A stretch of 64,000 bases of DNA from Parcubacteria group bacterium (GTDB taxonomy: Bacteria; Patescibacteriota; Patescibacteriia; UBA11705; JABHMO01). The position numbers and the translations under genes are program-made. Below the pieces are notes generated by a model. It was not told where the DNA came from. It saw nothing but the letters and a program-made list of their open reading frames with translations, and made no database searches. The stretch covers positions 22-64,021 of the forward strand of contig JAZDPK010000048.1 in assembly GCA_043797615.1 (NCBI GenBank), in the 5' to 3' direction. Within the stretch, counting starts at the first letter, position 1. The number at the start of each line of letters is the position of its first letter. This document shows positions 8,021-51,920 of the stretch, one piece after another.

Positions 8021-9482
8021 ATGAATGCGATTATAAAAAAACAAAACGGCGTAGTGTATACTCCGGAGTGGGTGGCGGATTTTATTATTGACGAGGCTTT
8101 TGCCGATAGAAAAATAAAAGGGAATGAAAAAATATTGGATGCGGGTTGCGGCGAAGGCGTTTTTACCGTTATTGCCGCGCAAAAATTCGCAAAATTATCG
8201 GGGAAGAAAATAAATAAAGTCATCGAGGAAAATATTTATTTTACGGATATATCGGAGGAATCAGTGGAAAAGACAAAACAAAACTTGCAAAATTTATCAA
8301 AAAATAAAATTAAAAAGTTCAATGCGATCTGCGATGATTTTTGCTTTCATGAATTCAATGAAAAATTCGATTTTATAATAGGCAATCCTCCTTATGTGCG
8401 CATTCAGCATTTAAATGGACGCAAGGATCTATTGCAAAAAAAATATATTACCGCATCCAGCGGCTCGATCGATTTATATTTTTGTTTTTTTGAAAAAGCT
8501 CTTAATTTACTCGGTCAAAACGGAAAAACCGCTTTTATAACGCCAAACTCGCATTTTTATTCGGCGGCCGGCAAAAATTTGCGCAATTTGTTGTTGCCGC
8601 ATTTATTAAAGATAATAAATTTCGATCATTGCCAAATATTCAAGGATGTAACCGCTTATACGGCGATTACGATATTGCAAAAAGAAAATACTTCGGGCTT
8701 TTTGTACGCGGAAAATTATAAAAGCGATTGCGATAATCTTCAATATAAAAAAATTTCAGCCAAACACATGAGACCTGAAAGGTGGGAGTTTTTCGATGAA
8801 AAATATTTAAATAAAATCGTTAAATTCAATAAGGAGTATTCTACACTTCAGGAAATTGCTGAAATTCACTACGGCATCGCCACTTTAAAGGATGAAGTCT
8901 ATATTTTTTGTCCCGATAAAACCGACAAGAACTATTATTACACGAATGGTTTTGAAATAGAAAAAGAGCTTTGCGTCCCAATTATCAAGGCGTCGACATA
9001 TAAAGGAGAAAATCAAAATCTTTTTATTATCTTCCCTTATAAACACGAAAGGGTGATCCCTAAAAGTATTTTTTCAGCGGAATTATCCGATGGCTTACAA
9101 ATATTTATTAAGCCAACGCGCAATTTTAGAAAATAGGGACAAGGGTGGCGGCAAAAATTATGAAGAATTTTACGCTTTTGGCAGAAATCAAGGCCTGAAA
9201 ACCAGTTTTGGCAAGAAAATCATAACTAGCACGATGAATCTCACTCCGCGATTTTACGTGATCGAAGACGATAAAACCAGCTTTTACGCCGGCTATTGCA
9301 TTAAACCGAAAAACAACATCGATCTTTACGAATTGTGCGACGCGTTGAATTCGGACTTGATGAAAGAACATATAAATTCCGTTTCAAAAAGTTATCGCGG
9401 TGGATACAAATCTTATGCTAAGAGCTTTTTAAAGGATTTTGTTCATCCGCAATTTTTCAAGATACAACCAGCATTATTATAA
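8021..9482 (+). pseudogene. gamma-class N6-adenine DNA methyltransferase (Eco57I/TaqI-like), split by a frameshift
   Basis: ORF 8021..9136 has VVYTPEWV, LDAGCGEGVF and IIGNPPYV. ORF 9090..9482 (frame open from 9057: FFQRNYPMAYKYLLSQRAILENR...FYAFGRNQGL) looks like the C-terminal target-recognition part. Removing one T from the T6 run at 9069-9074 fuses them into about 486 aa. Confidence 0.8.
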
Positions 9483-9606
9483 TGGAATAGATTTCCTCGC
9501 AGCTCTGCTGCGGGGTAAAGGAAAATTATCCTATTATACCTCGCCGATACGAAGCGAAGCGGAGTGAGGGAACAGCTTGCTGCGGGGTAGTTAATTTTTA
9601 AATTAT

Positions 9607-10320
9607 ATGAATAACAACGATTTTTTGAAAGTAGTCGAAAAATCATTTATCAAGTTTTTAGAAACGCATTCCAGAAGCAATAAAAAATTAATCGTATTGC
9701 ACGGAGCGATAGCGGAAGACATTAAAAACCGGTTGGGTGGAGATTTTGAAGTCAGATCTCTTGGCATGGGCGACGGCAAAGAAGGCAAGATGGAGGGCAG
9801 ATACATGGACAAAACCGTTGATATTTTAATTTCAAATAATAAATCGGACATTGCCGGCGTCGGAGTGAAATTCGTAATGAACAATTATTCTCAAAATTCC
9901 AATAATTATTTTGAAAACATGCTTGGTGAAACCGCAAATATTAGAGCCAATAATCAAGCATATTATCAAGTCTTAATTTTGCCGGAGGAAATGCCGTATT
10001 ATGATAATTCAGGAAAGATAACGAAATGGGAAAAGCTTACCGATCACAATATTGATAAATATATCGTGTTGTCCCAGGATAATGTTGATGCATATTTGCA
10101 TACTCCGATCAAAACGTTGTTATTTATCGTTGAATTTCCAAAATGTAACCATGATATTATAACCACAAAATTAGACTATAAACGTTATTATTTGAATAAA
10201 AAAAATGATGTTTCAATGCGAGCATCAGAAAGCATAGAGGAATTGTTCGGCAAGACAATAGTGTTTAATGATTATGAAACATTTATTGAAAAGATAGTCC
10301 ATCTTATTCAAGGCGCATAA
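9607..10320 (+). CDS. putative type II restriction endonuclease (context call)
   Basis: 237-aa ORF 125 nt downstream of the methyltransferase, same strand, same low G+C. Only a weak nuclease-like core is visible (VDILISNNKSDIAGVGVKF). Confidence 0.4.
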   Translation: MNNNDFLKVVEKSFIKFLETHSRSNKKLIVLHGAIAEDIKNRLGGDFEVRSLGMGDGKEGKMEGRYMDKTVDILISNNKSDIAGVGVKFVMNNYSQNSNNYFENMLGETANIRANNQAYYQVLILPEEMPYYDNSGKITKWEKLTDHNIDKYIVLSQDNVDAYLHTPIKTLLFIVEFPKCNHDIITTKLDYKRYYLNKKNDVSMRASESIEELFGKTIVFNDYETFIEKIVHLIQGA

Positions 10321-10488
10321 AAAATGAGATTGTGACAAATTGTCAAGGTTTGAAGTTAACGCGATTATTCTCCGATCATTATAAAAAGCTGGAAAATTTT
10401 TCAAAAGAATTTGTCGGTTTTGAAAAATTGGTCTTAAATGAATTTTCGAAATTCAAAATTAAAATAATAAATTAATAAATTTTCAATT

Positions 10489-11370
10489 ATGCCCATATAC
10501 AACGACGAAACGACCGAGAAAAATTTAAAGTACGGCTATTGGTTCGTCACGCACAAAGTGATGCTGCACAAGCTCGGCATTTTGGTATTGGCGGTCGTTG
10601 CCGGCGCTCTGCTTTTGTACGGCGCGTGGGGCGTTTTTGATTATTACGTCCTTGGCCGCGATAAAAATCTGGCCGTTGAAAAGGAAATCGCCTCTTCCAA
10701 GCTGAATTACGCGCTCTTGTCCGAAATTAACAAACCGAAAAATCTGCAGGTTTTGAGCGTCAGCAGCCTGAACGGCGGGGAGGGAAAAATTGATTTGGTC
10801 GCGGAAGTGGCGAATCCGAATATTCAATGGGCGGTGGAATCTTTTGATTATCATTTTTCCTCGGGCGAGCGGAAAACGGCCGTGAAATCCGATTTTATCC
10901 TGCCCGGCCACACGAAATTCGTCCTTGATCTTGGATTTGCGAGCTTGACCAGCTTTCCGAATCCGGAGCTGACCGTGGAAAACATTAAATGGAAAAAGAC
11001 GGCGAACTTCAAAGAGCTGGAGGACAAGGTGATTGATTTTGATTTCGCGAACAAGCAAGCGCTGCCGGCGAAGCGCAGCGGCGCGAGCGCCAAATCAGCG
11101 GTTTCCACCGTTGAATTCGACGTGATAAATCGGAGCGCTTATGGTTTTTCCGAGCCGAAATTCATCGTCTTGCTCTATAGCGGAGACAATCTGGTGGGCG
11201 CGGATCAGGCGGTTTTGGACATCCTCGTGACCGGCGAAACGAAAAATGTCAGCTTGAACATCTTCCAGGACATTCCGGCCGGCGCCGGAGTGCAGATTTA
11301 TCCGGACATCAACATCCTCGATCCGGCGGCGTTCAAGGGGTTTGGCAATGAAGGAGAAGTGCCGCAGTAA
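10489..11370 (+). CDS. membrane-anchored hypothetical protein
   Basis: 293-aa ORF with one N-terminal TM helix (LGILVLAVVAGALLLYGAWGVF). No motif recognised. Confidence 0.6.
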   Translation: MPIYNDETTEKNLKYGYWFVTHKVMLHKLGILVLAVVAGALLLYGAWGVFDYYVLGRDKNLAVEKEIASSKLNYALLSEINKPKNLQVLSVSSLNGGEGKIDLVAEVANPNIQWAVESFDYHFSSGERKTAVKSDFILPGHTKFVLDLGFASLTSFPNPELTVENIKWKKTANFKELEDKVIDFDFANKQALPAKRSGASAKSAVSTVEFDVINRSAYGFSEPKFIVLLYSGDNLVGADQAVLDILVTGETKNVSLNIFQDIPAGAGVQIYPDINILDPAAFKGFGNEGEVPQ

Positions 11371-37310: not shown

Positions 37311-40300
37311 ATGAAGAAGTCAGTACTGGGTTTCGTGTTTCTGTGTTCGTGTCTGCTGTTCGCGGCGTGCGACGGCGGCAAAACCGGCTGCGGCAACCTT
37401 TGCGGACGCAACGAAGTCTGCGACAACGGTAGGTGCTATGTTCGTTGCACGAACGATTACACCTGCATCCATGACCTGGAAGCGGGCCCGTCGTTCGAGT
37501 GCGATTTGAACGCCGGCTACTGCGTGAAGCGCTCGTCTGTGCCGAATAACTATCCGACGGTTTCGTCCGATGGCGGTTTGGCGGTGGACGGCGGCGTTTC
37601 CCCGGATGGCGGATCGACAGTGGCTGACGGTGGAACGATTGATGCCGGGATTCCGGATGCCGGCTGGTCGCCTTGCGGTTTGACTGTTGAACAGATGCGG
37701 ACCGACGCGAATCATTGCGGCAATTGCGAAACCAAGTGCAATCTGCCGAACGCGACTTCAAAGTGCGTTGCCGGCGCCTGCGTCATTGACAAGTGCGAAG
37801 TCGGCAAGAAGGATTGCGACAACAATCCGGCGACCGGATGCGAATCTGATTCAGCCACCGACGTGAACAATTGTCGGACTTGCGGACGCGTTTGCGATTT
37901 TGAATTTTCCGGCGAGTTTTGCGATGACGGCATGTGCGTTCCCACGACCTGCAACCAAGACCGCGGCGAATGCAATCCGCATGACAGCGTTCCTTGCGAA
38001 ACCGAATTACCAAGCGACGTGGAAAACTGCGGACGGTGCGGACGGAGCTGTAACGATGTTTATCCGCATTCCATGACTTTTTGCCTCGACCGCACGTGCG
38101 AATGGGCGAATTGCCGGACTGGCTGGGGCGCTTGCAACGCGAATGTTCGCGGTTGCAACACCAACCTTTTCATTGACAACGCCAATTGCGGCGAGTGCGG
38201 GGCGAAGTGCGACATTCCGAACACATACGCCAACTGCGAAAGCGGCGCGTGCGTTCCGAGTCGCTGTAAAGAAGGTTTCGCGGATAGCGATAACAACCTG
38301 TTGAACGGTTGTGAAATCGATTTGCGGAACGACGTTCACAATTGCGGCTTTATCGATAACAGCTGCGAGGCGGCGAACGTGTCGGCGATGTGCATTAACG
38401 GCATGTGCGTGCGCACCGGCTGTGAAGGCGATTATGTCACTTGTCCGATGGACGCGGCGCAATGCGGCACGAATATTCGCATTGATTCCGACAACTGCGG
38501 CGGCTGCGGCATCCGTTGTTCCGCTTTGTATCCGAACATGGATACGACCTGCAACAACGCGGTGTGCATTCCGATCGCCTGTCTCGCGCCGTACATGGAT
38601 TGCCGATGGCAGCCCGGATGCGAGACCAACACCGATACGAATATGAATCATTGCGGCAACTGCGACGTGAAGTGCGAAAAGCTGAACGCCTACGCCACGT
38701 GCGAAGGCGGCGAGTGCATCGCTCTTCGTTGCAAGGAAGGTTTCGCGGACGCGGACAACAACTTGAATAACGGCTGCGAGATTGATCTTACGAAGGATTC
38801 TTTGAACTGCGGCCGACTCGATAATGATTGCGCGCGAACGAACGTCGCGACCATGTGCGTGAACGGATTCTGCACGCCGACCGGCTGCGACGCCAATTAC
38901 GCCACGTGTCCGACGAGCGCTTTGCTCTGCGATATTCATTTGTCGGTTGATACGGCGAATTGCGGCAGCTGCGGCTATAATTGCGAATCGGTTTATCCCG
39001 GTTCGAATGTGGCTTGCAACAATTCTCGCTGCGATTTCGTCAGCTGTAAAACCGGCAAGGGCGCGTGCGATCCGAATGCCCGCGGCTGCACCATTGATTT
39101 GCTTACGAACAACAGTCATTGCGGACAGTGCAACGCGAAGTGCGACATCCCGAATGTTTACGCCAACTGCGAAAGCGGAGCGTGCGTTCCGAGTCGTTGC
39201 AAAGAAGGTTTCGCGGACGCGGACAACAACCTGTTGAACGGCTGCGAGATCAATTTGCGCGAAGACTCGAACAACTGCGGCGAAGTCGGACACAACTGCG
39301 CGTTCACCAATGCTTCGAGCATGTGCGTGAACGGCATGTGCGTTCCGACCGGCTGCGACGCGGGCTACGCGACTTGTCCGTTGTCGTCGAACGTTACTTA
39401 TTGCGGCATCAATTTGACGACCGACGCGGCCAACTGCGGCAGCTGCGGTTATAACTGCGAATCGGTTTATCCGGGCATGGTTGTGACCTGCACTGACAGC
39501 GTTTGCGTTCCGACCGGCTGCAAGGACGGCAAGGCGGATTGCAAAGCGGCCCAGGCCGGTTGCGAAACGGACATCACGAACGACGATAACAACTGCAACG
39601 GTTGCGGCAATAAGTGCGTATTCACGAACGGCATTGGAGTTTGCCTGCTGGGGAGCTGCGCATTTGTCGGTTGCGAGCCCGGTTATTACGACCTCGACGG
39701 CTTGGCAAGCAACGGCTGCGAGATCGATTTGACCAAGGACTCGAACAACTGCGGCGAAGCCGGACACAATTGCGCGTTCACCAACGCTTCGAGCATGTGC
39801 GTGAACAGCGTTTGCGTTCCGACCGGCTGCGACGCGGGCTATGCCACTTGCGCGTCTTCGTCGAATCCGGCGTATTGCGCGACTTACTTGCCGACGGATA
39901 CAGCGAACTGCGGGAGTTGCGGTTACAACTGTGAAACGGTTTATCCGGGCATGGTGGTGACTTGCGCTGACAGCGTTTGCGTTCCGGTCGCCTGCAAGGA
40001 CGGCAAGGCGGATTGCAAAGCGGCCCATGCCGGTTGCGAAACCGATACCACCAGCGACGTGAATAACTGCGGCGGTTGCGGCATCAAGTGCGATCTGCCG
40101 AACGGCAATTCAGCGTGTGAAAACAGTCTGTGCGTGTTTAAGGGTTGTAATCCCGGTTTCGCCGATTGCGATCTAAATTTAATAAACGGATGTGAAGTCG
40201 ATTTGACGAGCAATGTGGCTTTTTGCGGACGCTGCACCAAATCGTGTTCTTTCGCCAACAGCGGCGCGGTTTGCACGGACGGGGTTTGCACTCCGACAAC

Positions 40301-40988
40301 GTGCGATCTGTGGACGGCGGATTGCGATGCCAACATGGCGACCAACGGCTGTGAAACCAACCTGCTCACCGACGCGAAGCATTGCGGCTCGTGCGCCACG
40401 GCGTGCGGGTTTGACAATGCCGGATCGGTTTGCACCAACGCCGTTTGCCAGATGGGTACGTGCAATGCCGGTTATCTGGATTGCAACGGCCGCCAGAATG
40501 ACGGTTGTGAAATCAATAAGATGACCGACCCGAACAATTGCGGGGTATGCGGCACGGTGTGCGGAAGCGGCAGTTCCTGCGTCAACGGCGTTTGCCAAGC
40601 AAGCGGAACGCCGGGAACGCCTTTGCCGGCAGTGACTTCCATCACTTGCAGCATCTGCTGTCCGACCGGACTCGGTTCGCCCGTGGTTTGGTATGGAGCC
40701 GGACCGCCCGACACCATGACTTGGACACCGGCAAGCGGCGGTTCATGCGGCATTCTAGTGATGCAAGCGGGAACGTTCTGCAAGCGCGGTCTGCATCCGA
40801 CTTACAGCGCGGCGTTCAGCGGTTGGTTTACATACAACTGCAACGCCACCTGGAGCGGAGCGACGGCGAACGATGTTTCCACTTGCGTTGATCAAAATGG
40901 CAACGCGCTCACGTTCCACGACATTGCCGGAGTGGTCAATACCAGCGGCGTGCGTGAAGTGGCGATCGAGCAAACTTGCCATGAATAA
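37311..40988 (+). CDS. giant Cys-rich repeat lipoprotein, paralog 3
   Basis: 1225 aa, RBS aaggagga. Signal with Cys (LLFAAC), the same N-module as paralog 2 (CGRNEVCDNGRCYVRCTNDYTCIHDLEAGPSFECDLNAGYCV), a DGG linker, about 19 units of D..NCG.CG..C...C..G.C....C..G..DC....NGCE, and the shared C-module ICCPTG...VWYG...FCKRGLHP...GWFTYNC...NTSGVREVAIEQTCHE. Confidence 0.85.
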   Translation: MKKSVLGFVFLCSCLLFAACDGGKTGCGNLCGRNEVCDNGRCYVRCTNDYTCIHDLEAGPSFECDLNAGYCVKRSSVPNNYPTVSSDGGLAVDGGVSPDGGSTVADGGTIDAGIPDAGWSPCGLTVEQMRTDANHCGNCETKCNLPNATSKCVAGACVIDKCEVGKKDCDNNPATGCESDSATDVNNCRTCGRVCDFEFSGEFCDDGMCVPTTCNQDRGECNPHDSVPCETELPSDVENCGRCGRSCNDVYPHSMTFCLDRTCEWANCRTGWGACNANVRGCNTNLFIDNANCGECGAKCDIPNTYANCESGACVPSRCKEGFADSDNNLLNGCEIDLRNDVHNCGFIDNSCEAANVSAMCINGMCVRTGCEGDYVTCPMDAAQCGTNIRIDSDNCGGCGIRCSALYPNMDTTCNNAVCIPIACLAPYMDCRWQPGCETNTDTNMNHCGNCDVKCEKLNAYATCEGGECIALRCKEGFADADNNLNNGCEIDLTKDSLNCGRLDNDCARTNVATMCVNGFCTPTGCDANYATCPTSALLCDIHLSVDTANCGSCGYNCESVYPGSNVACNNSRCDFVSCKTGKGACDPNARGCTIDLLTNNSHCGQCNAKCDIPNVYANCESGACVPSRCKEGFADADNNLLNGCEINLREDSNNCGEVGHNCAFTNASSMCVNGMCVPTGCDAGYATCPLSSNVTYCGINLTTDAANCGSCGYNCESVYPGMVVTCTDSVCVPTGCKDGKADCKAAQAGCETDITNDDNNCNGCGNKCVFTNGIGVCLLGSCAFVGCEPGYYDLDGLASNGCEIDLTKDSNNCGEAGHNCAFTNASSMCVNSVCVPTGCDAGYATCASSSNPAYCATYLPTDTANCGSCGYNCETVYPGMVVTCADSVCVPVACKDGKADCKAAHAGCETDTTSDVNNCGGCGIKCDLPNGNSACENSLCVFKGCNPGFADCDLNLINGCEVDLTSNVAFCGRCTKSCSFANSGAVCTDGVCTPTTCDLWTADCDANMATNGCETNLLTDAKHCGSCATACGFDNAGSVCTNAVCQMGTCNAGYLDCNGRQNDGCEINKMTDPNNCGVCGTVCGSGSSCVNGVCQASGTPGTPLPAVTSITCSICCPTGLGSPVVWYGAGPPDTMTWTPASGGSCGILVMQAGTFCKRGLHPTYSAAFSGWFTYNCNATWSGATANDVSTCVDQNGNALTFHDIAGVVNTSGVREVAIEQTCHE
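38304..40184 (+). repeat. four tandem in-frame super-repeats (465, 468, 474, 474 nt)
   Basis: Each unit starts at NGCE(I)(D/N)L: 38304, 38769, 39237, 39711. The next NGCEVDL starts at 40185. Each holds three Cys-rich sub-units. The last two copies are closely similar over 158 aa. Confidence 0.85.
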
Positions 40989-43808: not shown

Positions 43809-44333
43809 ATGCAAATCAAGAAAAATAATTTCGCATATATCGACGGCGCGAACTTACACAAGGGCGTTAAGGAGCTTGGATGGAGTTTGGATTACAAGCA
43901 TTTCAGAATATGGTTGAAAGAAAAGTATTCCGTTGAAAGGGCGTACATTTTCATCGGGCTTATCCCCGAAAATAAAAACTTGTATACTTTTTTGCAGGAA
44001 GCAGGATTCACTCTCGTTTTCAAGGAAACCACTTATGACGGCGGCGGCAAAGTGAAGGGCAATTGCGACGCGGATTTGGTGCTGAAAGCGATTGTCGATT
44101 ATTACGAGAAGCAATTCGACAACGTCGTTATTGTCGCCAGCGACGGCGATTATGCGGGATTGGTGAATTTTTTCAAATGCAAAGCGGTTTTGCGGTCGCT
44201 GATTTCGCCCAATAACAGGTGTTCTTTTCTTTTGAGAAAGCTTAATGTGTCTTTGATTTATCTGGACACGCAACGGAATAAGTTGATTTACGCCCAAAAA
44301 GAAAAAGCCCCCGATAGAGACGGAACTCTATAA
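43809..44333 (+). CDS. NYN (LabA-like) domain protein
   Basis: 174 aa. FAYIDGANLHKG...GNCDADLVLKAIVDYY...VVIVASDGDYAGLV, the Asp pattern typical of NYN/PIN-like domains. Confidence 0.75.
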   Translation: MQIKKNNFAYIDGANLHKGVKELGWSLDYKHFRIWLKEKYSVERAYIFIGLIPENKNLYTFLQEAGFTLVFKETTYDGGGKVKGNCDADLVLKAIVDYYEKQFDNVVIVASDGDYAGLVNFFKCKAVLRSLISPNNRCSFLLRKLNVSLIYLDTQRNKLIYAQKEKAPDRDGTL

Positions 44334-44430: not shown

Positions 44431-45252
44431 ATGGAAAAAAATAAAGCAATCGCCATTTTCGAAGGCAAGCAAATCCGCCGGCATTGGGACGGGGAAAATG
44501 AACTTTGGTATTTTTCGGTTATCGATGTTGTCAGAGGTTTGACGGACAGCGTTGACGCCGGCGCTTATTGGCGAAAATTGAAACAAAGATTGAAAGAGGA
44601 AGGAAGCGAGGTCGTGACAAAATGTCACGAGCTGAAATTTATGGCTAATGACGGCAAATATTACGTTTCTGACGCGGCGGACACCGAAGTTATGTTGCGC
44701 CTGATCCAATCGGTTCCATCTCCCAAAGCCGAACCCTTCAAATTATGGCTGGCGCAAGTAGGCTACGAGCGCTTGGAAGAAACAGCTGATCCGGAATTGG
44801 CGATCGATCGCGCGCTTAAAACTTATTTGCAAAAAGGGTACAGCCGGGAATGGATCAATCAGCGGTTGAAAAGCATTGAAATCCGCAAAGAGCTGACCGA
44901 CGAATGGGAAAAGCGGGGAGTGAAGCAAGGCGCGGAATTCGCGATCTTGACCGATGAAATAACCAAGGCGTGGACCGGCATGACGACGAGAGAATACAAG
45001 GGCTTGAAAGATTTGAAAAAAGAAAACCTGCGCGACAACATGACCAATCTGGAATTGGTTTTGAATATGCTGGCGGAAACGGCGACGACGGAAATTTCGC
45101 ACAAGCGCGAGCCGAAAAATCTGGATGAAAATAAAATCGTGGCGCATGAAGGCGGAACGATCGCGGGCAACGCGCGCAAGCAAATCGAAGTTAAAACCGG
45201 CAGAAGCGTGATCGTCGGAAAGAACGCGAAGCGGTTGAAAAAGAGAAATTAA
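44431..45252 (+). CDS. Bro-N domain protein (antirepressor/DinD-like)
   Basis: 273 aa. IAIFEGKQIRRHWDGENELWYFSVIDVVRGL...KAEPFKLWLAQVGYERL. Confidence 0.7.
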   Translation: MEKNKAIAIFEGKQIRRHWDGENELWYFSVIDVVRGLTDSVDAGAYWRKLKQRLKEEGSEVVTKCHELKFMANDGKYYVSDAADTEVMLRLIQSVPSPKAEPFKLWLAQVGYERLEETADPELAIDRALKTYLQKGYSREWINQRLKSIEIRKELTDEWEKRGVKQGAEFAILTDEITKAWTGMTTREYKGLKDLKKENLRDNMTNLELVLNMLAETATTEISHKREPKNLDENKIVAHEGGTIAGNARKQIEVKTGRSVIVGKNAKRLKKRN

Positions 45253-45400
45253 GTTTTAAATTATGTTCAAACTATTCAGTCGAGCGGAAGCGCCGGCGCT
45301 GGCAAACGAGGAAAAATCCTCCGCGCCGGAAAAGCCGAAAAAAATCAATCTCGAGCGCTTGCTCGACAAGAAAATGAAAATATAATAAAATAAATCGCAT

Positions 45401-47449
45401 ATGAAACAAATTTTAAGCATCATAAAAGATTCGAATTACAGTTTTTCGTTGTTTGATCAGTCGCTGGTGGATGAATTGGAAAATAAAATAACGGTTAAAG
45501 ACGGAAAACCGTATGTTATTTGCGTTATCCGAGACAAGGAAATTGTGTTAAAACCGGAGGAAGTCGTCCGTCAGCTGTATGCAATGAAGTTGATTAAGGA
45601 ATATGGCTACCCGAAAAAGCGGATTCAGTTCGAGCATTCGATAAATTTCGGCCGAGAAATCAAATCCGCTGATATTGTTATTTTTGACAAAGATCGGCCG
45701 ACTGTCGAATATATTATTGTTGAGATAAAAAAACCGAAAATGCAAGACGGCAAGAATCAGCTGCGTTCATACACGAATGCGACCGGCGCTCCGATCGCGG
45801 TTTGGACGAATGGCGGTCAAATCTCGCATTACAATCGCAAAGATCCGAATTATTTCGAGGATATTACCGATATTCCAAAAGCCGATCAAACCCTTGAAGA
45901 CGTTTTGAAAGAAAAATTCACGCTGAAAGATTTGATAATCAAAGATAAGATTCCGAATGAGGGCAAATCGCTCAAAACGATCATTCAGGATTTAGAGGAT
46001 GAAGTTTTGGCAAATGCAGGCGTTGATGTTTTTGAAGAAGTATTTAAATTAATTTTTACCAAGCTTTACGATGAAATGCAAAGTAAAAATGATAAAATGA
46101 AGATTGATTTTTATTTAGAAAATGACTTGAGCGGAGAAAATAGGGGAAATTATGACGCGATAAAAGAATCTTTGAAAAAAATGGAGTACAGCCATTTTCG
46201 AGTTTTGGAATTCAGAAATACCGGACAATCCGAGGGAGAATTAAAAAAGAAAATTCAAAAGTTGTTCGATGAAGCCAAGGTGAAATGGCCGGGGGTCTTT
46301 GAAGAAGCCAGCCAAATTCAACTAACACCTTCGCATTTATCGATTTGCGTTTCCGGTTTACAAGATATCAAGCTTTTCAATTCCAACCTGCAAATTGTTG
46401 ACGAGGCTTTCGAATATTTAATCAATAAATCGTCCAAAGGTGAAAAGGGCCAGTATTTTACGCCGCGCCATGTGATCGACATGTGCGTGAAGATGCTCAA
46501 TCCGAAAGCAGGAGAATACATGATCGACACTGCCGCCGGTTCGTGCGGTTTCCCAGTTCATACAATATTCCAAATCACCGGCCATTTGTTTCAAAATACG
46601 GCGATATCCGATGAAGAAAAAGAAAATGTCTTGAAAATTTTTGGCATTGATTTCGATGAAAAAGCCGTGCGCGTCGCCCGCACTTTGAATTTGATCGCCG
46701 GCGACGGCAATACGAATGTTCTGCATTTGAATAATCTTGATTTCGAACGGTGGAATGAAACAATCAGCAATCGCAATTGGTTGGAAGTTTACGGTGCGGG
46801 TTTGAAAAGACTGGAAGCGTTGCGCAAAAATCCTGATTCATACAAAGAATTTAATTTTGATATCTTGATGGCCAATCCGCCATTTGCTGGGCCCATAAAG
46901 GAGCCGCGAATTATATATAAATATGATTTAGGGGTTAACGAAAAAGGAAAACGCAAGCCCAAAGTCGGCCGAGATATTTTATTTATCGAAAGAAATTTGA
47001 ATTTCTTGAAGCCGGGCGGCCGCATGGCGATAGTGTTGCCGCAGGGAAGATTTAATAACACATCCGATAAATACATTCGCGACTATATTTCCGAGAAGGC
47101 GAGAATTTTGGCGGTGGTGGGGTTGAATGTTAATACTTTCAAGCCGCATACCGGCACGAAAACAAGCGTTTTATTCGTGCAAAAATGGAATGACGACAAA
47201 TCAAAAGGTCCGCTCTGTCCGAAAGAAAAAGATTATCCGATTTTCTTTGCGGTTTCGGAAAAATCCGGCAAAGACAATTCCGGTGATTATGTATTTGTGA
47301 AAAATGAAAACGGCCAGAAAAAATTGGACAGGAATAGCCACTTGATAATCGATCACGACTTGCATAACCATGGCGGAGAATTGCCCGACGGCGTGGCGGA
47401 GAAGTTTATCGAGTGGGCGAAAAAAGAAAAATTAAGTTTTTGGAGATAA
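45401..47449 (+). CDS. hsdM: type I-like N6-adenine DNA methyltransferase with N-terminal HsdR_N-like (PD-(D/E)xK) domain
   Basis: 682 aa. N-terminus: SADIVIFDKDRPTVEYIIVEIKKPK...QLRSYTNATGAPIAVWTNGGQISHY. MTase: GQYFTPRHVI, IDTAAGSCGF, ILMANPPFAG. Confidence 0.85.
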   Translation: MKQILSIIKDSNYSFSLFDQSLVDELENKITVKDGKPYVICVIRDKEIVLKPEEVVRQLYAMKLIKEYGYPKKRIQFEHSINFGREIKSADIVIFDKDRPTVEYIIVEIKKPKMQDGKNQLRSYTNATGAPIAVWTNGGQISHYNRKDPNYFEDITDIPKADQTLEDVLKEKFTLKDLIIKDKIPNEGKSLKTIIQDLEDEVLANAGVDVFEEVFKLIFTKLYDEMQSKNDKMKIDFYLENDLSGENRGNYDAIKESLKKMEYSHFRVLEFRNTGQSEGELKKKIQKLFDEAKVKWPGVFEEASQIQLTPSHLSICVSGLQDIKLFNSNLQIVDEAFEYLINKSSKGEKGQYFTPRHVIDMCVKMLNPKAGEYMIDTAAGSCGFPVHTIFQITGHLFQNTAISDEEKENVLKIFGIDFDEKAVRVARTLNLIAGDGNTNVLHLNNLDFERWNETISNRNWLEVYGAGLKRLEALRKNPDSYKEFNFDILMANPPFAGPIKEPRIIYKYDLGVNEKGKRKPKVGRDILFIERNLNFLKPGGRMAIVLPQGRFNNTSDKYIRDYISEKARILAVVGLNVNTFKPHTGTKTSVLFVQKWNDDKSKGPLCPKEKDYPIFFAVSEKSGKDNSGDYVFVKNENGQKKLDRNSHLIIDHDLHNHGGELPDGVAEKFIEWAKKEKLSFWR

Positions 47450-47453
47450 AAAT

Positions 47454-48944
47454 ATGAATGACAGAGAAATAATAAAAATATTTTTAGACACACAAGAATG
47501 GCAAACATTCGAATGTAAAAGAGCCGCCATTAAACCATCCGATTTATTGGAAACTGTTGTCGGGTTTGCAAATTCGGATGGCGGATTTATTGTTATTGGT
47601 TTGGAAGATCCATTGAAGGTTCAAGGAGAGAAACGATTACTTGGTATCAGTGAAAATGCTGATAATGTCTCCGATTTCTTGAAATTAATTGACAAGGAAA
47701 TTGAACCGCCACTTATACTGTGGAGAAAATTTGAACTCGATATCAATAATACCCAAGGTTTGGCAGACAAACTTCTAGTGTTGGAAATAACAAAGAGCAA
47801 TGATGTTCACTCATTGAAAAAGGGGGATACTTTTGTAAGAAAAGGAAGACAGAATGTGAAAATCGGCTCAACAGAAATAATGCGCCTTAAATATGAAAAA
47901 GGAGCGATTAAGTTCGAGAGTGAAAAATCAGGGATTAATTCTCTCGAAAATATAGATGATTCTCTTTTGGCTCAATATAAAATAGACACATCAAGTACCG
48001 GCTTGGATGATTGGCAATTTTTAAAGGATAATGGGTTGGCGGTCGGAACTGTCAGCAAATACGAATTAACAAAAGCAGGCGTTTTGCTTTTTGGAATAAA
48101 TCCCTCCGTTGCATTAACGAGCAAGTGCGGAATAAAAATTTCTCATTATTACGGGACAAAGCCAACATATAGCGGAAAACCCAATTTCGTAAATCGTCCA
48201 TTTACCATAGAAGGTCCTTTAATGAAACAAATAGAACAAGCTATTGAATATTTCAGAAGCATTGTTAAGAATTCACCTCCGAAACTAAGCGGCGCTTCAT
48301 TTGCTCCAACTTTTTTGATTCCAGAATGGGCATTTCAAGAAGCGATAACAAATGCAGTGATTCATCGTAATTATTTCGTGCAGGACGATATTCAAGTTAG
48401 ATTTTTTGACGATCGAATGGAGGTTGAGAGCCCCGGCACATATCCCGGTCATATTACAGTTGAAAATATTAGAGCCGAACGATTTGCTCGTAATCCTCTG
48501 ATTTTACGCACCCTGAATCGTTTTCAAAAGGCTCCTAATCTTGATATTGGCGAGGGTGTTGACCGTATGTTTAAGGTAATGAAAGACAAAAATTTATACG
48601 AGCCATTATATTTCCCGCCGACCATAAGACCGAATACGGTTTTGTTATTGCTCTTAAATCTTCATAAAATTGAAGTTTGGGATACAGTAAGCAAATATTT
48701 AGATGAAAATTATAGAATAACTAACAAAAAAACGAGGGAAATAACCGGCGTTAATGATGTTCTTAAAATGTCTCGCTTATTGCGCAGTTGGGTTGAAAAA
48801 GGCCTTTTGGAAAAGATCGGAAAGGCAAAAAAAGACTGCTACTATCGCAAGCCAGGGCAAGAGGTTCCGAGAGGTTTATTTTCAAAGGGGGGTGATAATA
48901 AAGTTGAAAAGGGCAATAAGATCAATGATTTAGCCAAATTCTAA
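47454..48944 (+). CDS. AlbA_2 (Schlafen-like) + HATPase_c_4-like putative DNA-binding ATPase
   Basis: 496 aa. TFECKRAAIKPSDLLETVVGFANSDGGFIVIGLED (AlbA_2/divergent AAA-4 pattern). ITNAVIHRNYFVQDDIQVRFFDDRMEVESPGTYPG (HATPase_c_4 pattern). Confidence 0.7.
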   Translation: MNDREIIKIFLDTQEWQTFECKRAAIKPSDLLETVVGFANSDGGFIVIGLEDPLKVQGEKRLLGISENADNVSDFLKLIDKEIEPPLILWRKFELDINNTQGLADKLLVLEITKSNDVHSLKKGDTFVRKGRQNVKIGSTEIMRLKYEKGAIKFESEKSGINSLENIDDSLLAQYKIDTSSTGLDDWQFLKDNGLAVGTVSKYELTKAGVLLFGINPSVALTSKCGIKISHYYGTKPTYSGKPNFVNRPFTIEGPLMKQIEQAIEYFRSIVKNSPPKLSGASFAPTFLIPEWAFQEAITNAVIHRNYFVQDDIQVRFFDDRMEVESPGTYPGHITVENIRAERFARNPLILRTLNRFQKAPNLDIGEGVDRMFKVMKDKNLYEPLYFPPTIRPNTVLLLLLNLHKIEVWDTVSKYLDENYRITNKKTREITGVNDVLKMSRLLRSWVEKGLLEKIGKAKKDCYYRKPGQEVPRGLFSKGGDNKVEKGNKINDLAKF

Positions 48945-48971
48945 AGCCGTTATTTTCACGAGCCTGTTTTA

Positions 48972-49022
48972 CGTGTTGTTGAATGTGAAACGAAGAAAGA
49001 GAAATTAAGTTTTTGGAGATAA
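48972..49022 (+). repeat. diverged duplicate of the hsdM 3' end
   Basis: Translates RVVECETKKEKLSFWR*, against the hsdM end EWAKKEKLSFWR*. aaattaagtttttggagataaaa is identical to 47429-47451. Confidence 0.8.
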
Positions 49023-49025
49023 AAT

Positions 49026-49727
49026 ATGAAGCCAAAAGAGAATAGCATTATCCAAGGTATAATTAAAAAAGTAGAGGAAATAAAGATTGATTTTATAGGT
49101 ACTGATACGTATGTAGTAGGCGGTGCGCTTGAAAATAGATTTTTATTCAATAGATTAGTAGAGATTATAAAAAACAATCCCAGTATTGATAAACCAAACA
49201 TTTTTTTAGATTACATCAAAATAAATTATGTTACTACGATTATTGTCGCTATCTGCAGACAAATCGACGGAGATAAAGATTCCATAAGTTTAATAAATTT
49301 GCTCTATGAAATTTATAATAACGCAGAAAAAATAACAAAAAAATGGTTTGTAGCGTCATATAAAACAATAGGAATAGTTTATGGCAATCGTGCTTTTGAA
49401 GAAAATTTTGGCAACTTAAAGCATGTTGATCCCGCTATTATATATGCTGACATAGGCAATTTAATATTTTATACAAAGAAAATAAAAAAGTTTAGGAATA
49501 AAAGAGTGGCTCACTTAGACAAAAATAAAGAAATTAAATTTGATATTAATTTTGAGACATTGAACGACGCGATTGATTTAATGGAAAAAATTGTTAAAAA
49601 ATACTATCTATTATTAACTCAATGTGAAATGGATAAGTTATTGCCAGGAAATGTTTTATGTTTTAGAGATGATAGAAGTGACGAGGAAGACATCTTCTGT
49701 GTTCCATGGAAAAATTGTAAAAAATAA
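49026..49727 (+). CDS. hypothetical protein with HEPN-like RNxxxAH motif
   Basis: 233 aa, very AT-rich. FRNKRVAHLD at codons 156-165 (nt 49494-49514) fits Rx4-6H. Otherwise unrecognised. Confidence 0.6.
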   Translation: MKPKENSIIQGIIKKVEEIKIDFIGTDTYVVGGALENRFLFNRLVEIIKNNPSIDKPNIFLDYIKINYVTTIIVAICRQIDGDKDSISLINLLYEIYNNAEKITKKWFVASYKTIGIVYGNRAFEENFGNLKHVDPAIIYADIGNLIFYTKKIKKFRNKRVAHLDKNKEIKFDINFETLNDAIDLMEKIVKKYYLLLTQCEMDKLLPGNVLCFRDDRSDEEDIFCVPWKNCKK

Positions 49728-49758
49728 CTATGCAATATTCAGTCGTAAATTATAAAAT
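49724..49758 (+). repeat. duplicate of the hsdS 5' end (35-nt exact repeat with 50492-50526)
   Basis: aataactatgcaatattcagtcgtaaattataaaa occurs at both sites. The upstream copy opens a 17-codon stub, MQYSVVNYKMVKFKRAI*. Confidence 0.85.
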
Positions 49759-49779
49759 GGTAAAATTTAAAAGAGCAAT

Positions 49780-50496
49780 ATGAATGGAAATGAATTAGAA
49801 GAAAATGTAGAAAAAATGCTAAAAAATGATGGGTGGGAAATGACCTCAGAAGTTTTTTATACTGATCCGAATACGAAAAAGCCACGAGAGAAAGATATTA
49901 TTGCGCGGAAAAGTCAAAATACTAATAACTACGACGCTGTACTATTTGTTGAATGTAAATCGATACCAAAGGCCACGAGAATATACCCAAAAGGAAAGAT
50001 GGATGATGTCGCCAATACACTTTTTGCTTATCATATCCCTTTCGCAGATATTTCAGAGATTGAGAGACATAAGCAAACGCATTTTTATCAGAAATATTGT
50101 GAATTTTTTAAAACCAAGGATGATAAAGATTTTTTGCATGTCGCGATAAATCAGAATTTACAATCTTTCAGTGCTTTTAGGAAGGATAACAAAAAAGCAG
50201 CGGTTTATTATCTATTGGTGGTTTATGATGGTAACGTCTTTTACATTGATGATAATAGCCAACAACAAGATTGTCACGGCGCGCTTGTCAGAGTAGATAC
50301 ACTAGATAATACATTCAATTTAGTTAATAAAGGATGTTTTATTGAAATAGTTTCAATTTTAGATTTTGAAAACCTTTTGAAAAAGATAGAAGAGGACATA
50401 ACGCAAATTAATCAATCAGCTTTTTTTTATCGTGATATGCACCAAAAACACATTGCAAGCAATAGAAAAATAAATAAAACTAATAGATATGAATAA
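49780..50496 (+). CDS. PD-(D/E)xK nuclease-like hypothetical protein
   Basis: 238 aa. REKDIIARKSQNTNNYDAVLFVECKS gives D39...E58-x-K60 in the usual strand context. No other motif recognised. Confidence 0.55.
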   Translation: MNGNELEENVEKMLKNDGWEMTSEVFYTDPNTKKPREKDIIARKSQNTNNYDAVLFVECKSIPKATRIYPKGKMDDVANTLFAYHIPFADISEIERHKQTHFYQKYCEFFKTKDDKDFLHVAINQNLQSFSAFRKDNKKAAVYYLLVVYDGNVFYIDDNSQQQDCHGALVRVDTLDNTFNLVNKGCFIEIVSILDFENLLKKIEEDITQINQSAFFYRDMHQKHIASNRKINKTNRYE

Positions 50497-50498
50497 CT

Positions 50499-51920
50499 AT
50501 GCAATATTCAGTCGTAAATTATAAAACGGTTATAAAAGCAGATGATTTCCGTTGGGATGGAGAATTTTTATGTTTTGAACCGCATAAAAATAAAAATTAC
50601 CGATATTTTTCAATTGGAGAAATTTTAAAGTTCGCTCAATATGGAATTTCTATTGATATGAATGAATCAGGACAAGGATATAAAATATACAGAATGAATG
50701 AAATTTCAAATATGTTTTGCGATTTTGATGTGGATAAATATGCTGACATAAATGAGCAAGAAATGAAAAAATTTGAATTGAAAAACAACGACGTGGTATT
50801 TAATCGAACTAATTCGCAAGCATTTGTTGGAAGAACGGGAATATTCAGAAAGTTTTCTGACGAACCATTTGTTTTTGCTTCATATTTGGTTAGATTTAGA
50901 CCGGATCAAAAAAAAGTATTGCCAGAATATTTAACAACCTTTTTAAATACGAAATATGGAGTTCAAGATGTTCAAAGACGCGCAAGAATTTCAATAAATC
51001 AATCAAATGTGAGTGCTTCGGAATTGGAAAAAGTTGAAATGCCATTGCTATCAATCAATTTTCAAAACAAATTAATACCATTATTTGATAAATCTTTTCA
51101 TTCCATAGTTGAGTCAAAAAAATATTATTTTCAGGCAGAACAGTTGTTATTATCTGAAATAGGTTTGTCAAATTGGGTGCCGAAACAAGACCTTGTATTT
51201 ATAAAGAAATTTTCCGAAACAGAAAAGGCTGAGCGCATTGATGCGGAATATTTTCAACCGAAATATGAGGAGATTATCGATGCTGTAAAGAAATGTAAAA
51301 ATGGATTTGTGAAATTAGGTGAAGTTGCTAAAACAAAAAGAGGTTCGTTAATCTCTGATAATCTGTACCGCGAAGGCAAGGGGATTGGATATATTCGTGG
51401 AGCAGATTTTTCAAGTGGTTTTTTAAGCAATGATAAAATGATTTACATCGATGATTCATTTAAAAAAACAAATGAAACGAAAGTTAATCAAGGAGACATT
51501 GTTTTTGCGTTAATCGGAACGGTAGGATCGTCGGCTTTGGTTGAAAAAGATTTTGATGGAGCATTCATTTCTAACAATTTAGGAAAAATTTCAGTTAAAA
51601 ACTATAATTCAACAATTTTACAGGTTTTATTTCATTCTGTTGTTGGAAAAATGTACTTTGCGAAAGAACAAACCCAAACAGCTCAACCTAAAATCTCAGA
51701 TAAGGACATTTATGATTTTATCCTTCCTAAATTTGATAGCAAAACAGAAAAGGAAATAGAAAAATTATATTTTGATTCACAAAAAGCAAAACATTTGTTT
51801 AAATCTCTGCTTGAAATCGCCAAGCGGGTAGTGGAAATGGCGATTGAGAAAGACGAGAAAGAAGCGGAAAAATGGATTGATAAAGAATTGAAACAGCTGG
51901 ATGTTAAAATAACCAGTTAA
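50499..51920 (+). CDS. hsdS: type I restriction-modification specificity subunit
   Basis: 473 aa with a two-TRD layout and a helical C-terminal spacer. Blocks such as DVVFNRTNSQAFVGRTGIF and GDIVFALIGTVGSSALV are typical of HsdS. Confidence 0.85.
   Translation: MQYSVVNYKTVIKADDFRWDGEFLCFEPHKNKNYRYFSIGEILKFAQYGISIDMNESGQGYKIYRMNEISNMFCDFDVDKYADINEQEMKKFELKNNDVVFNRTNSQAFVGRTGIFRKFSDEPFVFASYLVRFRPDQKKVLPEYLTTFLNTKYGVQDVQRRARISINQSNVSASELEKVEMPLLSINFQNKLIPLFDKSFHSIVESKKYYFQAEQLLLSEIGLSNWVPKQDLVFIKKFSETEKAERIDAEYFQPKYEEIIDAVKKCKNGFVKLGEVAKTKRGSLISDNLYREGKGIGYIRGADFSSGFLSNDKMIYIDDSFKKTNETKVNQGDIVFALIGTVGSSALVEKDFDGAFISNNLGKISVKNYNSTILQVLFHSVVGKMYFAKEQTQTAQPKISDKDIYDFILPKFDSKTEKEIEKLYFDSQKAKHLFKSLLEIAKRVVEMAIEKDEKEAEKWIDKELKQLDVKITS

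Follow-up and report, generated by a model that had tools for sequence, protein, structure and literature searches.

Type IIB restriction–modification (R-M) systems of the BcgI type combine restriction and modification in one subunit (RM) and keep specificity in a separate subunit (S). Besides these RM + S systems, the single-chain fusions AloI and CjeI of ~1250 amino acids (aa) have been described, and characterized type IIB enzymes are described as uncommon (PMC3874165). For BsaXI, a 916-aa RM and a 476-aa S subunit form an (RM)2S complex that requires no ATP and whose catalytic residues D90, E105, and K107 belong to an N-terminal PD-(D/E)xK domain (PMC11997821). The locus described in this article spans positions 45401–51920 of a 64-kb stretch of DNA, the window, from a Parcubacteria group bacterium (contig JAZDPK010000048.1). 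It consists of five genes on the + strand, named M, P2, P3, P4, and S in their sequential order. Taken together, it probably encodes an (RM)2S system that brings its own nuclease and works without HsdR, accompanied by three autonomous effectors, P2, P3, and P4, that would have arrived separately by recombination at the conserved ends of M and S.

Two further groups of described systems are close to this locus. MADS is an eight-gene operon (mad1–8) that includes a kinase, needs mad2–4 and mad6–8 for defense, and methylates a bipartite site. The other group is formed by defense genes embedded in R-M operons, examples being PrrC in EcoprrI, the Campylobacter rlo genes, and TgvAB in VPI-2 of V. 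cholerae. Payne et al. (2024) used such "guilt-by-embedding" to define candidate PDCs and catalogued embedding for type I, BREX, DISARM, and Hma systems; on its origin, that paper offers only the idea of a "genomic sink." Relatives of two of the embedded proteins have been linked to R-M operons before. For AbiU2, the linkage was reported together with a proposed analogy to PrrC (PMC3710099). The Schlatpase supradomain, composed of a Schlafen (SLFN) domain and a GHKL ATPase, occurs in ~60,000 prokaryotic proteins; its SLFN part is the tRNase effector in SLFN-pAgo, and exchange of the module with R-M operons has been noted (bioRxiv 10.64898/2026.05.29.728809).

Architecture of M

The M gene (45401–47449, +) is an open reading frame (ORF) of 682 aa that the initial annotation had named hsdM. 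The methyltransferase part of this name holds. Following a helical linker, aa 332–607 (nucleotides [nt] ~46394–47221) form a γ-type N6-adenine methyltransferase with motif I as DTAAGS at aa 376 and motif IV as NPPF at aa 492 (Pfam N6_Mtase, 2e-33; Eco57I, 4.5e-12), and the PADLOC MTase_I model PDLC03034 matches at 7e-293. A plain HsdM it is not, since its N terminus is an HSDR_N_2 nuclease domain that had been overlooked (aa 52–159, nt ~45554–45877; Pfam, E = 3e-27). HSDR_N_2 is the PD-(D/E)xK nuclease domain of type I R subunits. Pfam finds no HsdM_N domain in M, while the canonical HsdM of locus L092 does show one. Other annotations of the family are "type I restriction enzyme M protein" (JGI source annotations) and a type I methyltransferase model (PADLOC).

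Conservation was determined from 83 full-length relatives with 65–88% identity, which stem from Patescibacteria, Poribacteria, Nitrospirota, Proteobacteria, Bacteroidota, and other phyla. Herein, E53, E78, D91, E108, and K110 are invariant in 83/83, with D91, E108, and K110 being the predicted catalytic residues. The NPPF motif is conserved in 82/83 at its first position and in 83/83 at the remaining ones, and four of the six positions of DTAAGS (D, A, G, and S) are invariant. Mean column identity is 0.84 for the nuclease domain versus 0.85 for the methyltransferase domain. M is thus predicted from its sequence to be an active nuclease, with a cleavage geometry presumably of the type IIB kind. 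The best match of M to a solved structure is RM.BsaXI (8w0p, 1.8e-17), confined to the methyltransferase region.

The HsdR-less M and S family

The S gene (50499–51920, +) encodes a specificity subunit of 473 aa with two target recognition domains (TRDs). Pfam shows two Methylase_S stretches, and many Specificity_I models of PADLOC match, the best at 7e-41. Its N terminus, MQYSVVNYK, is conserved across the family.

The initial annotation had found no helicase–nuclease HsdR in the 64 kb, and this is confirmed. None of the window's ORFs of at least 600 aa carries a ResIII or helicase domain in Pfam, and phmmer with a bona fide HsdR of 1032 aa gives zero matches among the window ORFs. The same query gives zero matches within ±10 kb of M in 86 related loci; as a positive control, it readily finds HsdR in loci L092, L098, L099, L101, and L153. 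The view of this absence as an anomaly has to be given up: the missing hsdR is none, because M carries its own HsdR-type PD-(D/E)xK nuclease domain with an invariant active site, and the M family itself is an HsdR-less RM + S family with one known R-M-S fusion. Judged from gene content, M and S are an HsdR-less two-gene unit across the whole family, one that would suffice for restriction.

This family is very large, with at least 8000 matches to M at E ≤ 1e-30. Its simplest loci have the order HTH(XRE)–M–S (HTH, helix–turn–helix) beside a serine recombinase (L001–L004), which directly adjoins the minimal module in L001 and L002 only. On a Klebsiella IncF plasmid, the M and S pair occurs with no other R-M gene. 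The most compact form is found on plasmid pAQ6 of Picosynechococcus sp. PCC 7002 (L175, 6998–10537), where a single chain of 1179 aa joins HSDR_N_2, N6_Mtase, and two Methylase_S stretches; this protein is 60% identical over the M part and is annotated only as "N-6 DNA methylase." Strain PCC 7002 is a culturable model cyanobacterium and hence convenient for asking whether the M family restricts DNA.

Two occurrences of M homologues concern phages. In L005 (3792–12058, on a 3.28-Mb contig), a homologue with 85% identity stands directly downstream of phage portal and major-capsid genes; since it adjoins these genes, the M–S module can apparently ride on prophages too. A homologue with 58% identity is present on the unannotated human-gut phage contig MT837643.

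The three cassettes

P2 (47454–48944, +; ORF, 496 aa) is a Schlafen/AlbA_2 protein with a GHKL ATPase. As initially annotated, Pfam assigns it SLFN_AlbA_2 (2e-17) and HATPase_c_4 (7e-15); a putative HTH follows at the C terminus. The motifs comprise E15-x4-E20-x-K22, a GFAN box, and the GHKL motifs EAITNAVIH at aa 296 and DIGEG at aa 364. A PADLOC run on the three cassette proteins had been suggested as well and was informative: P2 matches the pAgo model with its N-terminal SLFN–GHKL half (3.5e-28), and P4 has no model. Hence, P2 is a Schlatpase, predicted to be an ATP-controlled RNase (tRNase) that acts as an abortive-infection effector. In PHROGs, its family is labeled "DNA helicase" (phrog_12156, 7e-91), and Pfam shows no helicase domain in P2. 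The description of HATPase_c_4, "Putative ATP-dependent DNA helicase recG C-terminal," suggests where this label comes from, and it may spread through annotation pipelines.

On the DNA level, P2 shares a homology block with ~55 loci that extends from 47443/47454 to ~48902. A survey of 79 loci with P2 relatives of 60–90% identity allowed the context to be determined in 35. In eight of these, the relative follows an M of the present family, and in six it follows a canonical HsdM, four times with HsdS and HsdR downstream. Three relatives stand after S, two have S downstream, and for 16 the adjoining 3 kb to each side are free of R-M genes. Relatives of 86–90% identity occur in the present M family, in canonical hsdM–hsdS–hsdR operons, and alone. 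P2 therefore appears to have moved recently between R-M types, and its spread over two R-M families and solitary positions argues against a specific coupling to the M2S complex.

P3 (49026–49727, +; ORF, 233 aa) belongs to the AbiU2 family of HEPN proteins (Pfam HEPN_AbiU2, PF18734; 4e-10, 39.8 bits versus a cut-off of 26.8). The RNxxxAH motif recognized earlier is real and conserved: among 15 family members, H163 of R157-x5-H163 is invariant and R157 is present in at least 90%. The family is small, with 22 proteins. A canonical type I operon (L092) has one homologue inserted between its hsdS and hsdR genes; a second one, of 69% identity, occupies the M–S gap of the present M family, beside DUF6119 and directly upstream of S (L094/L095). 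P3 is predicted to be a standalone HEPN RNase that acts as an abortive-infection effector.

P4 (49780–50496, +; ORF, 238 aa) is assigned to the PD-(D/E)xK nucleases by its conserved motif. The D...ExK motif of the initial annotation proved genuine, as E37-K38-D39 and E58-C59-K60 (D39...E58-x-K60) are invariant in 31 family members. The AlphaFold2 model has a predicted local distance difference test (pLDDT) score of 92.3. Its N-terminal core gives local fold matches only, namely to R2 RLE, AF1548, XisH, and MspJI, all of which are restriction endonuclease-like. No model in Pfam, NCBIfam, PADLOC, or PHROGs matches P4, and its distant relatives have none in Pfam or PADLOC. The family has 35 close members and 703 cluster representatives in a profile search. 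Hence, P4 represents an unnamed PD-(D/E)xK nuclease family and a defense candidate, worth flagging for having ~700 cluster representatives and no model in the libraries searched.

In seven other contexts, the neighbors of P4 homologues are housekeeping genes, NYN, DUF3800, DUF3644, an MmeI-like enzyme, and a CBASS island. Two roles considered for P4 were ruled out. A pairing with a HEPN partner was prompted by AbiU2, DUF3644, and a weak HEPN match beside three P4 homologues. It was dismissed upon an hhalign comparison of the P3 family with the neighbor in L087 (0.1% probability) and the NYN, DUF3800, and housekeeping genes in the other contexts. A role as the missing R subunit for M and S was rejected because neither M nor S occurs in the seven contexts.

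Each of the three cassettes would have a defense role of its own, and the comparative data show them as separate entities. In the 86 M-family loci, no homologue of P2, P3, or P4 is found; the cargo there differs. Likewise, homologues of P3 and P4 are absent from the 79 P2-relative loci, and homologues of M, S, P2, and P3 from the seven other P4 contexts (Pfam-annotated gene tables; phmmer for the first three). The P2–P3–P4 trio is no conserved unit; the cassettes are independent and never occur together elsewhere in the loci examined. With no co-occurrence in any of these three sets, the initial idea of a composite system of the trio with M2S is not borne out.

The M–S gap as a cargo site

R-M operons had been pointed out as a hiding place for defense genes, and this family is a good example, with changing cargo in the gaps of 35/76 loci. 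Herein, 76 non-redundant loci with S downstream of M were considered. The M–S gap measures ≤15 nt (abutting genes) in 34/76, 16–150 nt in 7/76, and >150 nt in the remaining 35/76. Seven of the eight closest M relatives (at least 81% identity) hold 0.76–2.85 kb of cargo, and the 3,049-nt gap of the window is the largest among the 77 loci examined. The cargo varies by locus and includes AAA_15/AAA_21 ATPases (OLD-type TOPRIM in L006), Fic, RhuM-Fic, YhcG/DUF1016 nucleases, DUF4145, PIN toxins, a complete Pycsar pair (cyclase and PycTM), DUF6119, and unknowns.

Two of these loci merit a separate description. In a Fusobacteriales metagenome-assembled genome (L010, 2511–3830), a full Pycsar system, consisting of a nucleotide cyclase and the PycTM effector, stands between M and S. 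L006 and L177 come from different genomes that share a neighborhood (DUF8128–DUF87/TrwB-like ATPase ... EF-P) with different defense cargo: M–OLD–S plus PDDEXK_1, DUF2726, and a zeta toxin in L006, and a P4 homologue plus NYN in L177. This suggests a shared integration hotspot.

Repeats at the cassette junctions

The boundaries of the cassettes carry two duplicated sequences, named M3 and S5. The first copy of M3 (47418–47451, +) is the genuine 3′ end of M (...KEKLSFWR-stop), comprising its last 34 nt, with GGAG as the ribosome-binding site of the next gene; the second (48991–49024, +) is a non-coding pseudo-copy of 34 nt and 94% identity directly before the start codon of P3. P2 is therefore bracketed by direct repeats. 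In the same manner, P4 is bracketed by the two copies of S5. Copy 1 (49723–49761, +; 39 nt with 97% identity to the real junction) consists of the P3 stop and a pseudo-copy of the initial 32 nt of S, and copy 2 (50492–50530, +) of the P4 stop and the genuine S start. Both repeats are sharply bounded, lie at the exact cassette boundaries, and have no further copies in the 64 kb. They are conserved gene ends—...WAKKEKLSFWK-stop for M and MQYSVVNYK... for S—that are separated by ~3 nt in empty loci. Since the junctions are duplicated around cassettes, P2, P3, and P4 would have arrived separately.

The order of arrival can be read in part from the homology breakpoints, which are modular. The homology between P3 and L094/L095 (49054–49749) passes the P3 stop and enters the pseudo-S start, matching the genuine AbiU2-to-S junction there. 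Because the P3 homology continues into the S remnant, an M–P3–S ancestor is likely, which later took up P2 next to the end of M and P4 next to the start of S.

Similar remnants occur in other loci. L013 has a 75-nt pseudo-M C terminus before its second cassette, L018 and L027 have a YhcG cassette bracketed by M 3′ copies, and L044 has degenerate M 3′ remnants before its cassettes. In L087 (7604–10046; = L088), a cassette array that lacks both M and S is flanked by housekeeping genes, namely adh_short and RNase HII. Its order is M remnant (63 nt)–truncated Bro–M3–P4 homologue–S5–M3–226-aa gene–S5–M3–154-aa gene–S5. For a systematic test, the 30-nt M end and S start of each locus were matched to the locus itself (ungapped, at least 23/30), with eight internal segments as controls. 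Extra M 3′ copies were found in 6/77 loci versus 3/308 controls, all six being cargo-bearing loci, and extra S 5′ copies in 3/77 loci versus 0/306 controls. nhmmer anchor profiles of 43–45 nt gave zero matches.

The 3′ end of the Bro gene upstream of M holds a 20-nt partial M3-like remnant (45238–45257), shortly followed by TATTCAGTCG, which also occurs in the S start. Both may be the trace of an older M/S junction.

Proposed explanation and alternatives

By analogy with BcgI and BsaXI, the (RM)2S complex would methylate a bipartite site and would cut unmethylated DNA near this site with its own nuclease domain, without ATP-driven translocation. RM + S would be self-sufficient and motor-less, which would explain why the locus has no hsdR. 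The M/S junction would serve as a recurrent landing site for foreign genes, where three single-gene defense cassettes would have accumulated in this case. P2, P3, and P4 would be autonomous effectors of the abortive-infection or nuclease kind, expressed together with the operon and gaining from the linkage. Regarding their arrival, the simplest reading is a stacking via recombination at the conserved M and S ends, with the cassettes being added one by one at the last ~30 nt of M or the first ~30 nt of S. A cassette could either loop out together with one anchor and re-insert in the Campbell manner, or be passed on by unequal exchange between M–X–S loci, and the duplicated scars around P2 and P4 would be the leftovers of such events. 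Because remnant lengths vary, homologous or illegitimate recombination fits better than a site-specific one. A more far-reaching version is put forward only tentatively: the M/S junction may possibly be an integrase-free cassette-capture platform, from which units of the form M 3′ end–gene–S 5′ start loop out and re-insert at the ~30-nt ends. If true, one pool of defense cassettes would be shared, and stacked, by the R-M operons of different genomes, with arrays that could outlive the loss of M and S as in L087, and a concrete mechanism for the embedding of defense genes and the growth of defense islands would be at hand.

Several observations weigh against the reading of a self-sufficient RM + S operon with separately acquired cassettes. 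On the side of M, a profile search of the PDB with the N-terminal 180–200 aa returns nothing at E ≤ 1, and the best single-sequence match of this domain, the type I HsdR 3h1t, is at chance level (E = 1.1). The domain does not align by sequence with the nuclease domain of BsaXI either; the type IIB resemblance is therefore one of architecture rather than of demonstrated R-domain homology. The AlphaFold2 model of M reaches a pLDDT of 36, from a shallow input alignment of 82–88% identity, and gives no structural support for the fold. A literature search found no paper that characterizes the M family and no enzymology. MAD2, the closest NCBIfam relative of M, needs further genes, so RM + S alone might not restrict. 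For the source organism, the HsdR search covered the 64-kb window, and an hsdR elsewhere in the genome is conceivable. On the side of the junctions, scars are clear in a minority of the cargo-bearing loci only, remnant lengths range from 26 to 75 nt, and the direct S5–M3 joints of L087 are not explained by simple homologous recombination.

The alternatives differ in how they couple the cassettes to M and S. P3, P2, or both could be held inactive by RM + S and freed when an anti-restriction protein of a phage disables the complex, and thus form a suicidal second line of defense as PrrC does. Such a coupling would be functional but generic, mainly concerning AbiU2 and not the trio as such. It draws on the AbiU2 homologues with sufficient context, all of which lie inside R-M operons (canonical type I in L092, the present M family in L094/L095), on the association and PrrC analogy already published for AbiU2 (PMC3710099), on the 19/35 determinable P2-relative loci that adjoin R-M genes, and on the tight, co-oriented spacing, which suggests co-expression. 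The P2 relatives of 86–90% identity are nevertheless distributed over two R-M families, 16/35 loci have no R-M gene within 3 kb, P4 relatives occur without M or S in seven other contexts, and Pfam shows the ABC-ATPase regulatory module of PrrC in neither P2 nor P3, which leaves this guard function unlikely. A stricter coupling is the obligate composite system of the initial annotation, in which an R-less M2S complex senses the target or its methylation and the three cassettes are dedicated effectors. The five co-oriented genes with spacings of 2–81 nt, the lack of hsdR in the window, and the nuclease-type active sites in all three cassettes speak for it. It is largely refuted by the comparative data and very improbable: M has a conserved nuclease domain of its own, M and S do without cassettes in 34/76 loci and also exist as a single fused chain, the cargo changes from locus to locus with the trio not found together elsewhere, and the duplicated junctions indicate that the cassettes arrived separately.

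The remaining alternative denies the restriction activity itself and regards M and S as an orphan or epigenetic methyltransferase for modification only, with a non-catalytic or regulatory N-terminal domain and the cargo consisting of addiction or toxin modules. In its favor are the lack of a significant match between the N-terminal domain of M and a solved nuclease, and the PIN, Fic, and RelE-type toxin genes among cargo and neighbors. Yet without catalysis, it is difficult to account for a full E...D...ExK set that is invariant in 83/83 relatives from many phyla at 65–88% identity. In addition, minimal modules have M preceded by a C-protein-like HTH gene, as is typical of restriction-proficient systems, and the architecture matches that of characterized type IIB enzymes. 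This makes it improbable, and an RM + S operon with its own nuclease and independent cassettes stays the preferred explanation.

Surroundings of the locus

The ORFs confirm the five genes on the + strand as initially annotated. Their spacings had been given as 4–81 nt, which is correct for M–P2 (4 nt), P2–P3 (81 nt), and P3–P4 (52 nt) but not for P4–S, which are 2 nt apart. From their co-orientation and spacing, M, P2, P3, P4, and S are probably co-transcribed. The only reasonable σ70-like match positioned to drive this unit is a promoter-like site (TCGACA-17-TAAAAT; 45363–45391, +) 10 nt ahead of M, identified by its consensus only; the region contains 32 such matches versus a shuffle expectation of 27 ± 5, that is, no excess. 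A promoter and terminator scan of the five-gene unit gave no internal promoters or terminators above shuffle expectation. GC content at third codon positions forms a mosaic of 0.46 (M), 0.32 (P2), 0.25 (P3), 0.26 (P4), and 0.24 (S) versus 0.55–0.66 in the flanking genes. The block is compositionally foreign to the flanking O-antigen ligase and glycosyltransferase genes.

Since an NYN gene and a Bro-N/PDC-S13 gene stand directly upstream of M, the defense island extends to ~43.8–51.9 kb. It comprises seven genes, with a Wzy_C O-antigen ligase gene on one side and GT4 glycosyltransferase genes on the other. The first gene (43809–44333, +) encodes an NYN-domain (PIN-like RNase) protein (Pfam NYN, 4.8e-12; PADLOC NYN, 1.2e-7, and HEC-09, 3.8e-4), and the second (44431–45252, +) a Bro-N/DinD-like protein (PADLOC candidate PDC-S13, 1.2e-132; Pfam Bro-N). 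The M–S loci L009 and L039 have homologues of PDC-S13 inside or beside them; in L172/L173, such homologues directly precede P2 fragments. No recombinase or integrase is among the Pfam matches of the seven island genes.

Elsewhere in the window, positions 8021–11370 form a second low-GC island (GC 0.34–0.39 versus a window average of ~0.46). It starts with an Eco57I/N6_Mtase-type methyltransferase of 371 aa (8021–9136), followed by ORFs of 237 and 293 aa without a Pfam match, and may be a separate type II R-M system. A 1225-aa ORF without a Pfam match lies in a high-GC stretch (0.56–0.58) at 37311–40988; the 673-aa antisense ORF that overlaps it is probably spurious.

Comparison with known systems

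Compared with canonical type I systems (HsdR2M2S), the locus has a similar S with two TRDs but no HsdR with a superfamily 2 motor, neither in the window nor within ±10 kb of M in the 86 loci, and its M has a nuclease domain and no HsdM_N. The nearest named equivalogs belong to MADS. M aligns end to end with the MAD2 profile (aa 38–645, 306 bits) and S with that of MAD5 (103 bits), both far below the NCBIfam equivalog cut-offs of 720 and 400 bits, respectively. No other MADS genes are present at the locus, where only the mad2 and mad5 models find a match; equivalog scores and gene content hence rule out that it is MADS. MANTIS/Gao_RL was set aside as well, as its abstract describes a different architecture.

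The closest counterpart in architecture is type IIB, as represented by BcgI and BsaXI. Both have two genes, with an N-terminal PD-(D/E)xK domain and a γ-type N6-adenine methyltransferase on one chain and a separate S of ~470 aa (473 here versus 476 in BsaXI) with two TRDs, and neither has an ATPase or translocase. The catalytic positions are nearly equal (D91/E108/K110 in M versus D90/E105/K107 in BsaXI), and the single-chain fusion of pAQ6 relates to the M family as AloI and CjeI relate to BcgI. However, M is shorter than the RM subunit of BsaXI (682 versus 916 aa) and, because of this, has no counterpart to the C-terminal region with the BsaXI "paddle" (residues ~811–823). Its nuclease domain falls into Pfam HSDR_N_2, the type I HsdR family, with no detectable sequence similarity to that of BsaXI. 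The M family, known here from its sequences, further differs by having at least 8000 highly conserved members, and at the present locus the RM and S genes are split by cargo. An apparent "R-less type I" locus is thereby resolved as BcgI-like RM + S, which removes a false anomaly.

The individual cassettes can be compared with described effectors. P2 shares with Schlatpases and SLFN-pAgo the SLFN (AlbA_2) and GHKL domains with the E-x4-(D/E)-x-K and GHKL motifs, and its C-terminal HTH makes it the commonest standalone form. It differs from SLFN-pAgo, for which alone tRNA cleavage has been demonstrated, by having no Argonaute sensor. Unlike in PrrC, no ABC-ATPase N-domain is fused to the HEPN domain, as P3 is a standalone HEPN protein and P2 combines SLFN with GHKL.

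The arrangement of the cassettes resembles integron arrays, in which promoterless, co-oriented single-gene cassettes with short conserved boundaries also follow a fixed platform and strings of cassettes can persist alone, as in L087. In contrast to integrons, the island has no integrase gene, and the boundaries are coding remnants of the M 3′ and S 5′ ends instead of attC sites. Another likeness is to the genes embedded in type I R-M operons. In both, co-oriented defense or toxin genes stand between R-M subunit genes, the cargo differs among related operons, and it is of the same kind, with HEPN RNases, ABC/OLD ATPases, Fic/RhuM, NYN, and GmrSD-like proteins; the gene upstream of M is itself PDC-S13, a candidate of the set of Payne et al. 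(2024). Embedding as such is thus already known. What is added here is its extension to another R-M class, the BcgI-like RM + S operons, which may have gone unnoticed should surveys that start from complete type I systems pass over loci without HsdR. Term searches of Payne et al. (2024), the one embedding paper checked for this, yielded no mention of recombination or boundary repeats. The gene-end scars are a testable clue to how embedding arises, a question left open there. Unlike the embedded type I genes, the present locus has an HsdR-less RM + S operon as host and a single gap with a stack of three unrelated single-gene cassettes, whose boundaries bear duplicated pieces of the host gene ends.

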